A stretch of DNA of 64,000 nt from Dictyostelium discoideum. Taxonomy: Eukaryota. The position numbers and the translations under genes are program-made. Shown here in pieces: positions 28,526 through 36,316 of the stretch. The DNA lies in assembly GCA_000004695.1 (NCBI GenBank), contig CM000153.2, positions 2,560,001 through 2,624,000 on the forward strand. The letters are read 5' to 3'. The notes under the pieces were generated by a model that was not told the origin of the DNA, did not search any database, and saw nothing but the letters and a program-made list of their open reading frames with translations. How positions within the stretch are numbered: the first letter of the stretch is position 1; every line of letters starts with the position of its first letter.

Positions 28526-29110
28526 TTAATCTTTAGATTTAATTTCAATATTTGATTTTACATAAAAGAGTGGTTGTAATGGTTGATCTTGAGATGAAAG
28601 GTTTGGCGTTGTTTCAGGCGTTGTTTCAGGTGTTATTATATTATCATTATTATTATTATTATTATTATTATTATTATTATTATTATTATTATTATTATTA
28701 TTATTTATAATATTATTATTATCATCATTATTATTATTAGTATTAATACCAGTTGAATTTATATTTTGGGTTGCAGTGGTATTATTGGAAATGGTATTAG
28801 TATTGTTATTGTTATTTATATTGTTTGTATTTATATTTGTAATATTATTATTAATATTATTTCCATTGGTAATTCCAGTTTGTTTTAATTTTTGATTATT
28901 ATTATTATCATTATTATTATTAATATTTTTATCTTTATTTTTATTTTTATTATTGGATTTTGAATGGCCACATAGTAAAGTTTTTATGGAGTCATTCCTT
29001 CTATCCAGTATTAATGATTTTACAGTGATACAAACAGTAGCAACTTCTAATATAATTGATATTACTAAACTATACCATGCCAATGTTGGTCTCCAAATAT
29101 ATTCGATTCT
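28526..29110 (-). CDS. Paralog A, exon 2 (RIEYIWRPTLAWYSLVISIILEVATVCITV..., Asn-rich tail)
   Basis: An aaatag acceptor at 29111-29114, in frame with ORF-table 28526..29083. The TM helix comes directly after the W.P..W..SL motif. Confidence 0.6.
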   Translation of the reverse strand, partial: RIEYIWRPTLAWYSLVISIILEVATVCITVKSLILDRRNDSIKTLLCGHSKSNNKNKNKDKNINNNNDNNNNQKLKQTGITNGNNINNNITNINTNNINNNNNTNTISNNTTATQNINSTGINTNNNNDDNNNIINNNNNNNNNNNNNNNNNNNNDNIITPETTPETTPNLSSQDQPLQPLFYVKSNIEIKSKD

Positions 29111-29189
29111 CTATTTAATTTAAATATAAAAAATAAGTATTTTTTTTTTTTTTTTTTTTTTTAATTAAACAAAATGAATTTTAACTTAC

Positions 29190-30107
29190 ATCACCATTTG
29201 GTTCTGTTACAAACAAAAAACCAGAGAATGTAGTACAAAGTCCATAATAGTCATTTGTATTATTTTTTATACATATTGATTGAATATATGGTTCGCTTTT
29301 AAATGCATTGTTTAAAGACAATGGATAAAATATTGCAACACATATGAATACAAATGGTAAAATATTAAAAAATAATAAAAGTATAGCAATTATTGTACTA
29401 TTTTCCCTTTTAACATTATATTTTTTAATTTCTATATTATTATTATTATTATTATTATTATTATTATTATTATTATTATTATTATTATTATTGTTATTAT
29501 TATCAATTGTATTTTTATTATTTTTATTATTTACATGTTGTTGTTGATGTTGTTGTTGTTGTTTTTGTAATTGTTGTTGATGATGTAATTGAAATTGATA
29601 AAATAATTGTTGTTGTCGTAACTTTTTTTGTTGTTTTTTTTGAAATTCTTTTTCTTCAGAATCATTTAAATTAAAATTATATTCATCATTTATCATTTGT
29701 TCTTCTTCGTCATAAATTTGATTAAAGTCATTATTTAAAAACCTTTTTCCTACATGATTCATGTAAGCGATTAATAGGAAAATTGGAATTACTTTGGAAA
29801 CTAATGCCGACACTGTGAATTTATAACTATAACTTAGAATTGAACCAACTGTGTTATGATTTGGATAATAATAAAAACTTGCATTGTAAATGTATTGATT
29901 TGAAGTTATTGGAATATTCTCAGCTAGAGAAATATATTCGGTGTGAAATAAATAAGATTGTTTTCTAGTGTATGAACTTTTTGAAAAATTATAAAAATTA
30001 TAGTCTGCTTTATACAAGGGTTGTGATACTGAAAAATACAGTAGACACGTATCAAATGTCAATAAAAATAATAATATTATTATTGATGTTGTAATTTTAA
30101 ATAACAT
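29190..30107 (-). CDS. Asn-rich tetraspan-like membrane protein, paralog A, exon 1 (306 codons)
   Basis: ORF table 29181..30107. An N-terminal signal/TM is followed by KVIPIFLLIAYM, a poly-Q/poly-N insert, a second TM pair, and then ...YYGLCTTFSGFLFVTEPNGD with a GTAAGT donor. Confidence 0.65.
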
Positions 30108-33100
30108 TTTTTTATTTTATTTAATTATTTTTATTATTATTATTATTTTTATTATTATTATTTTTATTATATTAAAATATTTAATTAATTTTATTTTTTT
30201 TTATTTTCTTTGAAAAAATAAATTAAAAAAATAAAAAAACAAATAAACAAATAATAATAATAATAATAGTTATATAGCTATGTTTTTTTTTTAATAATAT
30301 TTTTATATGTAATTAATTAATTTATATGTAGAGTGTTTTTTTTTTTTTTTTTTTATATCAATGAATTTTTATTTTTTTTTTATTCTTTTTTTTTGTATAC
30401 AATTTTTATAGTTGGTTTTTTTTGAGGAGATACATATGAAAAAAATAGGCTTTTTATTTTTTAAATATTATGGAAATCATTATTGTTTAGTTAATAATAT
30501 GAATAAGATTGGTAGTCTTTTTATTATTATTTTTATTTTTATTAAAATGGTATTTAAAATAAAAAAATAAATAAAACCAACGTTTTTTTTTTTTTTTTTT
30601 TTTTTTTTTTTTTTTTTTTATTGAACGAAATATTTTTGTATTTATTATTTGTTTAAAAAAATTTTTTTTAAATTTTTTAAAATAAAATTAAAAAAAAATT
30701 AAAATTTTTTTTATTTTTTATATTTTAAGTGGTTAAATTAGTGATGTTGTGTTTGGGGGGGGAGGTTTAAATTTATATTGGATATAAATATTGTTTATAA
30801 GTATTTTATTTTATTTTTTTTAAGTACACATGTAATTATAATTATTTTAAAGATTTTTATTGTTTTTTTTTTTTTATATGTTGGAATTTTTTTTTTTTTT
30901 TTTTTTTTTTTTTTTGATATTGTTTAAATTTTTTTTTTTTGTCTTGAAAATTTAATTAAATAATAAATATTAATAGCCAAGAAGATAAAGAAAACCAATT
31001 AAATTAAGTTGTGAGTGAGTGTGTGAGTATACACTTTTTGTGGGTTAAAGTGTTGATTATATAGTTTTTATATTTTAAAATTAATTTTTTAATAAAAAAA
31101 AAAAAAAAAAGAAAAAAAAAAAAAAGTAATATATAAAAAAAAAAAAAAAAAAAAAAAAAAAAATAAAAAGAAAAAAATAATAATAAAAAAAAAAAAAATT
31201 AAAAATAAAAATCAATTTAAATGGTTACATAACACCAAAATTATATAAAGTTTATCGCATTATTATTGAGATAAAATAAATAAATAAATAATTAAAAAAA
31301 AAAAAAAAAAAAACCTCTCTCTATCACATTAAACCAAAAAAAAAAAAAAAAAAAAAAAAAAAACTCTCTCTCAACCACATAAAAACAATTTTTTTGCACA
31401 CTCTCTCTAAAAACGTTTTCCACATTTGATATTGTTTTTTTGTTCGAGTGAGAGTGGTAGTTAAATGTGAGCTCACAAGATTTTTTTTTTTTTTTTTTTT
31501 TTTTTAATTCATCAAAATAATAAAAAAGCTAATATATTAATATGTATTTAACCCCATATTGGGTGAGTTATTTTTAATATGTTATTTTTTTGGGAGAGCT
31601 TCCCTTATTAAAATAGAGGTGAACAAAATGTAAAACTCCAACCATATTTTTTATGTATATATATAATTTTTTTTTTTTTTTTTTTTTTTTAATTTGATTT
31701 TATTTTTTTTTTTTTTTTTTTTTTTTTAATCATTAAATATTTACACAATGGAAATTGTTTTATCACACTTGATTTTTTTTTTTTTTTTTTTAATTTTTTA
31801 AAAAAAAAACAAGATATAATTTTGGGGGGTCATGAGATGAATTTATACCATTTTTTTAACTGATGTATAAAAATAGTGTTAAAAAAATATTATTTAATAT
31901 AATTATTATTGTCACATAATAAATATTGTAAAATTGATTTTAATAAAATTGGGTGAGCCATTTCGATTATAACAATATAAAAAAAAATTTATATGTATAT
32001 ATTGCACTAAAATTTTTATTTTTATTATTATTATTATTATTATTATTATTATTATTATTATTATTATTATTATTATTATTATTTTTATTATAATTATTTT
32101 AACTCACATTATTACTTTCACCCACATATTATATTAATAAAATAATATCATAAAAAAAAAAAAAAAAAAAAAAAAAAAATACTTAAAGGCGTTTTGTTCA
32201 TTGATAAAAATTGATTTTTGAATTTTAAAAAATCATTTTTTTTTGTATTTATCAAAAATGGAAAAATTAATTTTGGGATGTCGAATTTATGATTTATCAC
32301 TTTTTTTTTTATTCTATTATTATTATCAAAAATTATTTTGTTTTTTAATAAGAATATATTAAAAAAAAAAAAAAAAAATTTAATAAAAAAAAATAAAATT
32401 ATTAAAAATAGATTATATCTTTTATCATCTTTTATTATATATCATTTATTTTTATCATTACACTATTTTTATTATTATAATTATTATTATTTTTTTGATT
32501 TATTTATTTTTTATTTAATTTTTTTTTTTTTTTTTTTTTTCCTTTTTCCTTTTAGTTTTAATCACTTAAAAATTTAAAGGGTTAAAATATATAAATAATA
32601 ATATTATTTTTGATATCATTATTTTATTATTTTATTTTTTTTTTATTTTAATTTTAATATTATTTATATTTTTATATAAATATGTATTTTTTTTTCTTTT
32701 TTTTTATTTTTTTTTATTATTTTTTTTATTTATTTTTATTTTTAAAAATGAGATTGAAAACAAAATCTAACAATGACATTTGGAAAAAATAAAATATTTT
32801 AATAGAAAAAAAAAGAGACATAAATTTCAGATATCATTTTTGCATATAATTCTAATATAAAAAAAGGAAAAAAAAAAAAAAATTTCTATTTTTAGTTTTT
32901 AACTCCTTCAAAAATGGTTGTTAATTTTCCAACAACCCATTTATTGTAAAGTCAAGGGCCAAATTGTGCACCAATGGTGAGTCAACTAGTTTAATTGTTA
33001 ATATTGGAATTAACATTCAATACTGTTTTTCAGGTCCTTGTATAGAATAATATTTTTTTGTTTGCAATATTTATTATTTAATCATTATTTTTAATAATAA

Positions 33101-35116: not shown

Positions 35117-35341
35117 TTAATCTGTACCAATTCGTTGATTTAATGTTAATAAACGATAATTAATTAAATCCATATCACTTAAATTTAATATATTTGTAAA
35201 TTTATGAGGTTGTTTTGGTTTTTTTAATTTTCCCTCTGTTATTATTAAAAAGATAATCACAATAATTGAAAATGAATCTAAACATAATGAACACAATGAT
35301 AAATACCACCCAAATGATGGACCCCAACTGAAATCCATAAA
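35117..35341 (-). CDS. Paralog C, exon 2 (FMDFSWGPSFGWYLSLCSLCLDSFSIIVIIFLII...)
   Basis: An aaatag acceptor. ORF table 35117..35338. Confidence 0.55.
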   Translation of the reverse strand, partial: FMDFSWGPSFGWYLSLCSLCLDSFSIIVIIFLIITEGKLKKPKQPHKFTNILNLSDMDLINYRLLTLNQRIGTD

Positions 35342-35428
35342 CTATTTAAAAATTAATAATTGTTAGGAATACATATATATTTTTTTTTTTTTTTTTTTTT
35401 TTTTTTTTTTTTTTTTTAATATACATAC

Positions 35429-36316
35429 ATTTTCATCACTTGTTGTACTTGAAAAACCAATAAAAGAATTACAATAACCAAATGGATCTAAATTTTTTGT
35501 ATAACATAATGGTTTGTTAAATATTTGTTCATCAATTGATGTTAATAATTTCATAGTTATACTAATTCTATGAGTAACTACAAATGTTGAGAATAAAGTA
35601 ATCATAAAACTAACACCATTAACTACTAATTGTGTTATTAAATAATATGATGCACTTGATTGATACCTCTCCATCAACACCTCATATGTTGGCATTGTAT
35701 TTATAACAACTTCATTTGCTCCATCTAATACATCATTATTATCATTATTATCATTATTATTATTATTTTGATTATTATTATTATTATTATTATTATTATT
35801 ATTATTATTATTATTATTATTATTATTATTATTATTATTATTATTATTATTATTATTATTATTATTATTATTATTATTATGATGTTGTTGAATTTGATTT
35901 AGATATCTTCTTTTTGGTTTTTGTAAGTTTATATACATATTTACAATGAGAATTGGAATTGGGAAAACTTTTGCAATTAAACTAGTTAAAGTCATTGATG
36001 TGATGATTTGAAATACTGAATTCTTTGTTGAACTATCATATGAATCGTATGATACTCTTTTCGTTATTAGATATGCTTGATTAAATGATGTTTTCATTTC
36101 AAATCTATTAATATCATAGAAATAGGTACCAAAGAATTGAAATTGATGGAATTCTTTATTGATTACAATTGTATTATTCCTTATGTCTGTATGATTTACT
36201 ATTATGAAATCACTTTCATAATATGGAAATACTAATGAAAATGATAATATTGTAATACTCATTATACAACATAAAAATATAAATAATTTTGAACAATCTA
36301 CTTTTAAAAATACCAT
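35429..36316 (-). CDS. Asn-rich tetraspan-like membrane protein, paralog C, exon 1 (296 codons)
   Basis: ORF table 35363..36316. It reads MVFLKVDCSKLFIFLCCIMSITILSFSLVF..., KVFPIPILIVNMY, a poly-N insert, then ...PFGYCNSFIGFSSTTSDEN with a GTATGT donor. Confidence 0.6.

Follow-up and report, generated by a model that had tools for sequence, protein, structure and literature searches.

What kind of protein is encoded by the three similar two-exon genes, here called A, B, and C, that lie together on the minus strand of a 64-kb stretch of the Dictyostelium discoideum genome (contig CM000153.2, positions 2,560,001 to 2,624,000; hereafter the window)? An original prediction had described them as tandem duplicates of an Asn-rich, tetraspan-like membrane protein family that is unlike tetraspanins, claudins, or MS4A proteins and is expanding in a single lineage. 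We find that A, B, and C are anciently diverged paralogues of one membrane protein family. Our favored reading, with a probability of roughly 0.55, is that this family is a Dictyostelium-restricted tetraspan resembling the claudin fold that serves as a membrane scaffold or auxiliary subunit.

A, B, and C are conserved paralogues under purifying selection

The original prediction depended on the three genes aligning to each other outside low-complexity sequence, and they do. The proteins are 20-27 % identical to each other outside such tracts, and pairwise blastp outside poly-Asn detected a colinear block spanning the splice junction (5e-7 to 1e-4) along with a weaker block at helix 2. When one paralogue was left out of the family profile, the spliced left-out protein scored 27-30 bits, compared with no more than 10.3 bits for the best shuffle (n=2000 local shuffles, with composition preserved in 15-residue windows). 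The same leave-out profiles applied to single exons recovered exon 2 of gene B (E 3.5e-8) and exon 2 of gene C (9.6e-6). Gene A was not recovered from separate exons, since the splice junction divides the conserved block, and the test with the spliced protein succeeded. The outer coordinates of the three genes proved exact (A at 28526-30107, B at 33257-34635, and C at 35117-36316, all on the minus strand), and splice junctions read directly from the sequence gave GT..AG introns in phase 0 in every gene. The profile scores, the shared phase, and the identical intron position together bear out tandem two-exon paralogues. The conserved Trp motif reported at the start of exon 2 is present, but the exon begins five codons ahead of the Trp (RIEYIW, ELDYRW, and FMDFSW).

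We assembled a 13-gene family set from A, B, and C and their orthologues in other Dictyostelium genomes, including four members from D. purpureum. Contigs of D. dimigraforme (L001), D. citrinum (L002), and the genome GCA_036169595.1 (L004) are colinear with the window, as is, more distantly, one of D. purpureum (L003). Orthologues are intact in these four other species. Applying the same splice logic produced an A orthologue of 501 residues in D. dimigraforme and a C orthologue of 408 residues in D. citrinum, both matching the lengths annotated by NCBI. The A orthologue is 91 % identical outside low complexity, with a ratio of nonsynonymous to synonymous substitution rates (dN/dS) of 0.10, and the C orthologue is 90 % identical with a dN/dS of 0.16; the D. 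citrinum B orthologue has a dN/dS of 0.15 (Nei-Gojobori method outside low complexity; dS 0.30-0.46). A, B, and C are thus under purifying selection. The intron lies five codons ahead of the invariant Trp in 12 of the 13 genes and four codons ahead in the most divergent one, and it is in phase 0 in all 13.

Gene order is conserved as well. GCA_036169595.1 carries the whole cluster in C-B-A order with the same Rab and Oxa1 flanks, B and C of D. citrinum are syntenic with the window, and in D. purpureum four members follow one another on the same strand close to Oxa1; one is an orthologue of A, one is C-like, and two are divergent and B-like. In D. dimigraforme, synteny ends about 2.5 kb beyond gene A (window about 32655; L001 1-1937), and neither B nor C was located in that genome; an unrelated Cys/Thr/Pro-rich gene beyond this break (L001 461-1069) has no counterpart in the window. 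Because the A/B/C split is shared with D. purpureum, the tandem cluster is older than the divergence of D. discoideum and D. purpureum. Three copies are found in the window, three in GCA_036169595.1, and four in D. purpureum. The proposal of a lineage-specific expanding family therefore stands in part: the family is lineage restricted, with all members identified to date coming from Dictyostelium (the D. discoideum group and D. purpureum), but the cluster is ancient and stable and is not expanding at present.

Two public records, one from D. citrinum and one from D. purpureum, probably contain annotation errors. For the B orthologue of D. citrinum, the record gives 422 residues over 2.7 kb (L002 17760-20467), whereas homology supports a two-exon gene of 372 residues that ends at 18966. 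The annotation of the C-like gene of D. purpureum (L003 8370-9495) starts at an internal Met; beginning instead at an in-frame ATG further upstream brings back the first transmembrane helix.

In an exhaustive HMMER search of 1.84 billion representatives, a profile built from exact pieces of the window matched only two proteins, the B orthologue of GCA_036169595.1 (P0010; 1e-45) and a D. purpureum protein of 333 residues (P0011; 2.7e-4) with all family hallmarks and no poly-Asn. A metagenome scan for relatives found none. Word-indexed protein searches with stripped alignments returned nothing and were uninformative, as they also missed known orthologues. Exact look-ups of the spliced proteins and raw exon open reading frames (ORFs) in a 15-billion-protein collection found no match. 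The reconstructed D. dimigraforme and D. citrinum orthologues were likewise missing or not retrieved there, although their neighbors were present, and the proteins of the source organism itself seem to be absent from protein collections; the empty protein searches are therefore weak negatives. Our literature searches turned up no report, from Dictyostelium or Amoebozoa, of a claudin-like or tetraspan family resembling this one.

Topology and conserved motifs of the family

Four hydropathy peaks occur in the same order in each of A, B, and C, and four are found in 12 of the 13 family members; the remaining member lacks transmembrane helix 1 (TM1) only through a start codon annotated too late. 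The density of Lys plus Arg is 0.18 on the predicted cytosolic side versus 0.10 outside. The hydropathy peaks and this bias uphold the tetraspan topology originally proposed, with both termini predicted to be cytosolic. N-glycosylation sequons are present in the loops, and the proteins are putative four-pass membrane glycoproteins. The features of the three genes are as follows.

Gene A, minus strand, product of 500 residues
29190..30107, minus strand: exon 1, 306 codons
30083-30027, minus strand: TM1, followed by loop 1
29819-29763, minus strand: TM2, with KVIPI at 29795-29781
29427..29582, minus strand: poly-Gln/poly-Asn insert, residues 176-227, in the cytosolic TM2-TM3 loop
29393-29337, minus strand: TM3, followed by loop 2 with Cys279 and Cys291
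29111..29189, minus strand: intron, 79 nt, GTAAGT..ATAG, phase 0
28526..29110, minus strand: exon 2, 194 codons and stop
29095-29075, minus strand: WRPTLAW
29065-29009, minus strand: TM4, with Glu328 at 29047-29045
28634-28930, minus strand: further Asn-rich runs in the cytosolic tail
28552-28535, minus strand: C-terminal NIEIKS
Gene B, minus strand, product of 420 residues
33613..34635, minus strand: exon 1, 341 codons
34605-34549, minus strand: TM1, followed by a long loop 1
34150..34278, minus strand: poly-Asn insert, 43 residues, in extracellular loop 1
34050-33994, minus strand: TM2, with KIIPI at 34035-34021, followed by a short cytosolic loop
33933-33877, minus strand: TM3, followed by loop 2 with Cys312 and Cys326
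33497..33612, minus strand: intron, 116 nt, GTAAAA..ATAG, phase 0
33257..33496, minus strand: exon 2, 79 codons and stop
33481-33461, minus strand: WGPSKSW
33463-33407, minus strand: TM4, with Glu363 at 33433-33431
33295-33278, minus strand: tail motif NIEIKS
Gene C, minus strand, product of 370 residues
35429..36316, minus strand: exon 1, 296 codons
36286-36230, minus strand: TM1, followed by loop 1
35998-35942, minus strand: TM2, with KVFPI at 35971-35957
35732..35899, minus strand: poly-Asn insert, 56 residues, in the cytosolic TM2-TM3 loop
35641-35585, minus strand: TM3, followed by loop 2 with Cys271 and Cys282
35342..35428, minus strand: intron, 87 nt, GTATGT..ATAG, phase 0
35117..35341, minus strand: exon 2, 74 codons and stop
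35326-35306, minus strand: WGPSFGW
35296-35240, minus strand: TM4, with Asp318 at 35278-35276
35140-35123, minus strand: tail motif NQRIGT

Across the 13-member alignment, TM1 is followed by P-x-Y and then by loop 1, which spans 68-166 residues and contains no Cys in any of the 12 members scored. [KR]-x-[IVF]-P is found in TM2 of 12 of the 13 members, the cytosolic loop between TM2 and TM3 ranges from 19 to 164 residues with its length set by poly-Asn/Gln inserts, and TM3 has a central Asn or Gln. Loop 2 is 56-99 residues long and follows the pattern C-x(10-13)-G-x-C-x2-[FY]-x-G; of the 12 members scored, 11 have two Cys in this loop and one has three. About 20 residues past this pattern, W-x-P-x3-W runs into TM4, which contains a central Glu or Asp in all members but one, and the cytosolic tail ends in a conserved N-I-x-I-K-type motif (NIEIKS type). 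Two Cys, one Gly, and one Trp are invariant across the alignment, and the two invariant Cys of loop 2 are 10-14 residues apart. The motifs listed in the original prediction were all found: helix 2 has K[VI][IF]PI, loop 2 has G.C..F.G, and helix 4 opens with W.P...W. The "GF" after the Cys motif and the "LSL" sequence are present in some copies and lacking in others.

A poly-Asn/Gln insert had been placed between helices 2 and 3 in all three proteins. This is its position in A and C, but in B the tract lies in loop 1, ahead of the K..P helix. The gene B tract is missing from the D. citrinum and GCA_036169595.1 orthologues, and its site matches a disordered region of P0010 (residues 71-121) with a predicted local distance difference test (pLDDT) score of <50. 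We read it as a homopolymer inserted recently into an exposed, disordered stretch that tolerates it. The D. citrinum and GCA_036169595.1 orthologues of gene C carry a longer tract than gene C itself, and the lengths of the gene A tracts vary among orthologues. With the gene B tract absent from orthologues and no tract at all in P0011, "Asn-rich" does not describe the family; the poly-Asn/Gln tracts are labile, neutral inserts tolerated in disordered loops.

The predicted fold resembles that of claudins

AlphaFold 2 (AF2) models were made for two full-length relatives. In the model of P0010 (mean pLDDT 59; predicted template modeling score [pTM] 0.56), four long helices are confident (pLDDT of 84-94 in 10-residue blocks), and five strands are predicted, four in loop 1 (residues 32-39, 51-57, 61-67, and 124-130) and one in loop 2 (residues 290-297). 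A long disordered insert, at the site of the poly-Asn tract of window gene B, separates strands 3 and 4. The fifth strand is ELDYRWGP, which comprises the first residues of exon 2 and directly precedes TM4. The helix bundle and five-stranded sheet of the claudin fold, in which loop 1 contributes beta1-4 and loop 2 contributes beta5 ahead of TM4, are therefore both present in the prediction. The Foldseek list was almost purely claudin-fold, with template modeling scores (TM-scores) of 0.65-0.71 relative to claudin targets, and the matches with the lowest root mean square deviation (rmsd) and fullest coverage were all claudin-fold for two models and two programs. Generic four-helix bundles gave a similar Z, but their alignments covered the helices only, and channel-type structural matches had an rmsd of 6-11 Å. 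On these models, the fold is probably claudin-like. The earlier description of the family as unlike claudins thus holds for sequence, in which the claudin signature is absent, but not for the predicted fold.

Comparison with claudins (claudin-3, -4, -9, -15, and -19; PF00822, PMP22_Claudin) extends this resemblance. Both groups have a four-pass topology with cytosolic termini, a predicted left-handed bundle with a five-stranded sheet (four loop-1 strands and one loop-2 strand leading into helix 4), and a conserved C-terminal cytosolic motif, which is NIEIKS-like in Dictyostelium and a PDZ-binding YV in claudins. They differ in that the Cys pair of the Dictyostelium proteins is in loop 2 whereas the claudin disulfide is in loop 1, and in that the Dictyostelium proteins have Lys and Glu buried mid-membrane.

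Several observations weigh against relating the family to claudins. Loop 1 of claudins carries a signature, W-(G/N)LW-C-x(8-10)-C, with a disulfide (PROSITE claudin signature); in the Dictyostelium family, loop 1 lacks Cys in the 12 members scored and the alignment has no GLW-type motif. Loop 2 is 56-99 residues long in Dictyostelium versus about 10-30 in claudins. The AF2 models were built from shallow alignments (8 rows) and have overall mean pLDDT of 59-61 and pTM of 0.53-0.56; the strands have pLDDT of about 65-70, and most of loop 2, including both Cys, is disordered at pLDDT <50. The best Foldseek E was 0.017, with no match at E <=0.001. The family profile had no match to PDB sequences at E up to 10, and hhalign of the 13-member profile with claudin-4/-9, whose sequences were verified against the PDB, gave a probability of 0.4 % against a thin claudin profile of two sequences. 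The claudin link thus comes solely from predicted structure.

Sequence models of known families agreed with the original prediction that no tetraspanin, claudin, or MS4A match exists, as did the PDB profile search and hhalign, and no Pfam family was matched. Pfam hmmscan at E up to 10 with full, low-complexity-stripped, and D. purpureum sequences gave only low-complexity or chance transmembrane noise and listed none of the PMP22_Claudin, Claudin_2, L_HMGIC_fpl, SUR7, and Fig1 models. Sequence identity is 8-14 % to channel and receptor auxiliary subunits that share the fold (TARP gamma-2/3/5/7/8, Cav gamma-1, GSG1L, and LHFPL4/GARLH4) and to the lens/myelin proteins MP20 and PMP22; these are metazoan families with a loop-1 Cys pair, which the Dictyostelium proteins lack. 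Like the Dictyostelium family, fungal Sur7, Fig1, and Dcv1 are non-metazoan tetraspans; they have been called claudin-like, and they organize domains of the plasma membrane or function in mating and cell polarity. They differ in that their Cys motif lies in loop 1, and the Dictyostelium proteins have no Pfam match to the SUR7 or Fig1 models. The claudin-like domain of DUOXA1, a dedicated NADPH oxidase maturation factor with five helices, showed no sequence similarity to the family; this domain acts as an assembly module (PMC7794343).

We do not file the family among the claudins: the four-pass topology and predicted fold agree with theirs, but the loop-1 signature and all sequence models do not. 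If the models are correct, the family would be a new variation, confined to Dictyostelium, on the claudin-type tetraspan architecture, and it may have arisen by either divergence or convergence.

A possible scaffold or auxiliary subunit and its alternatives

To our knowledge, all characterized claudin-fold proteins are nonenzymatic and bind other membrane proteins in cis or in trans, and a membrane scaffold, adhesion, or auxiliary-subunit role is therefore favored for the Dictyostelium family. In such a protein, the four helices would bundle, with loop 1 providing four beta-strands and loop 2 a fifth that runs straight into helix 4 and places the invariant Trp at the strand-5/helix-4 junction. 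The two loop-2 Cys would probably pair as a disulfide that stabilizes the extracellular sheet, and this small sheet may be the surface for binding other membrane proteins. The juxtamembrane segments, which are conserved, and the NIEIKS-type C-terminal motif could provide docking for cytosolic partners. Mid-membrane, a polar trio is formed by Lys/Arg of helix 2 (beside the Pro), Asn/Gln of helix 3, and Glu/Asp of helix 4. In P0010, these are K155, Q192 (TM3), and E311, all mid-helix, with the Lys of TM2 and the Glu of TM4 at equal membrane depth. We infer that the trio most likely makes a salt bridge buried in the membrane or serves to dock a partner.

The polar trio also underlies the strongest alternative, in which A, B, and C encode a real four-helix protein whose likeness to claudins is a modeling artifact or convergence, and the Lys/Asn-Gln/Glu cluster serves an ion or proton pathway or a small oligomeric transporter or channel. 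In 12 of the 13 members, helices 2, 3, and 4 each have a conserved charged or polar residue at their center; this pattern, which is unusual for claudins, speaks for such a function, as do the low confidence of the modeled loops and the missing claudin link at the sequence level. Opposing it are the structural comparisons described above, in which claudin-fold proteins supplied the best matches and channel-type proteins fit poorly, and the lack of any channel or transporter match in Pfam; furthermore, Lys and Glu at equal depth are most simply explained by an internal salt bridge. We regard this alternative as rather unlikely.

Less probable still is that the proteins reside in internal membranes (endoplasmic reticulum, Golgi, contractile vacuole, or endolysosome), with lumenal loops and the C-terminal motif acting as a sorting signal. 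Topology prediction is blind to the difference between plasma and internal membranes, a short conserved motif does lie near the C terminus, and the housekeeping neighbors offer no functional hint. We have no direct counterargument, since the sequons and the loop Cys pair are compatible with either location; most characterized claudin-fold proteins act at the cell surface, which counts against an internal site.

We consider it doubtful that the family is a deeply diverged amoebozoan claudin branch, or an independent invention of the fold, that acts at cell-cell contacts in development, for example, in sealing or organizing the tip epithelium. If true, this would mean junctional tetraspans in an organism thought to lack them.

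Membership in the tetraspanin, MS4A/CD20, MARVEL, or connexin/innexin families is very improbable; even with E allowed up to 10, Pfam searches matched none of these families. In tetraspanins (PF00335), loop 1 is small, and loop 2 is large, mainly helical, and marked by 4-8 Cys and a CCG motif, whereas loop 1 here is large and predicted to be beta-rich, and loop 2 lacks CCG and contains two Cys. MS4A/CD20 proteins have short extracellular loops, and both loops of the Dictyostelium proteins are at least 56 residues long. Connexins, innexins, and pannexins have Cys in both extracellular loops, unlike the Cys-free loop 1 of this family.

Finally, the notion that the ORFs are nonfunctional (chance or low-complexity artifacts or decaying pseudogenes), which the very AT-rich DNA, the long poly-Asn tracts, and the absence of the exact proteins from the 15-billion-protein collection might suggest, is already refuted by the conservation data, namely, dN/dS of 0.10-0.16, intact orthologues in four other species, conserved splice sites and intron phase, and NCBI annotation of orthologues.

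Other features of the locus

The window is very AT-rich (12-37 % GC) and dense in poly-Asn/Gln tracts, as is typical of dictyostelid genomes. A fourth family copy was looked for within the 64 kb and not found. The flanking genes are unrelated and encode an ABCC-type transporter, an F-actin-binding protein, Oxa1 (60KD_IMP), a Rab-like GTPase, a PDCD2-like protein, a Skp1-POZ-like protein, a CAP+WSC protein, and an ABC1 kinase. These are housekeeping genes and give no hint to the function of A, B, and C. A neighboring ORF in the window clusters at >=90 % identity with a D. dimigraforme ABC transporter. The sole tRNA gene in the window, tRNA-Phe (GAA), is on the plus strand at 3537-3610.

An (AAAT)n microsatellite lies directly upstream of the gene C ATG (36317-36523). 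A 211-bp match (79 %) between the gene C upstream region and that of the D. dimigraforme ABC transporter was rejected as spurious, as it consists of this (AAAT)n microsatellite.

The A-B spacer (30108-33256) contains a block of about 45 bp (within 30935-31075, minus strand) that is nearly invariant in four species, with the sequence AAAACTATATAATCAACACTTTA[A/C]CCCAC[A/T]AAAAGTGTATAC. The block holds a TATA-like box, a 7-bp inverted repeat, and a sequence, ACCCACAA, that resembles the DUSE (Dictyostelium upstream sequence element), a Dictyostelium noncoding RNA (ncRNA) promoter element (PMC7919456). It is followed by a CA-rich run and, about 55 nt downstream, by a second conserved stretch. This block may represent either a small ncRNA gene missing from the annotation or a distal promoter that serves gene A; an Rfam scan of the cluster and the A-B spacer found nothing. 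The motif CTCACCCAAT occurs twice in the spacer (31948-31957 and 31561-31570, minus strand), inside islands that are better conserved between species.

Implications

If the link to the claudin fold fails, A, B, and C would constitute an uncharacterized but conserved and lineage-restricted membrane protein family of modest general interest. If the fold holds, social amoebae would possess a private claudin-fold family, beyond sequence linkage to claudins, TARPs, and PMP22, and the claudin architecture would extend beyond animals and fungi. The buried Lys/Glu pair and the loop-2 disulfide would then represent a distinct solution within the fold. D. discoideum builds a polarized epithelium without known tight-junction proteins, and the three genes, which lie in one 8-kb cluster that could be removed together, would be candidates for adhesion, membrane-domain, and auxiliary-subunit roles.

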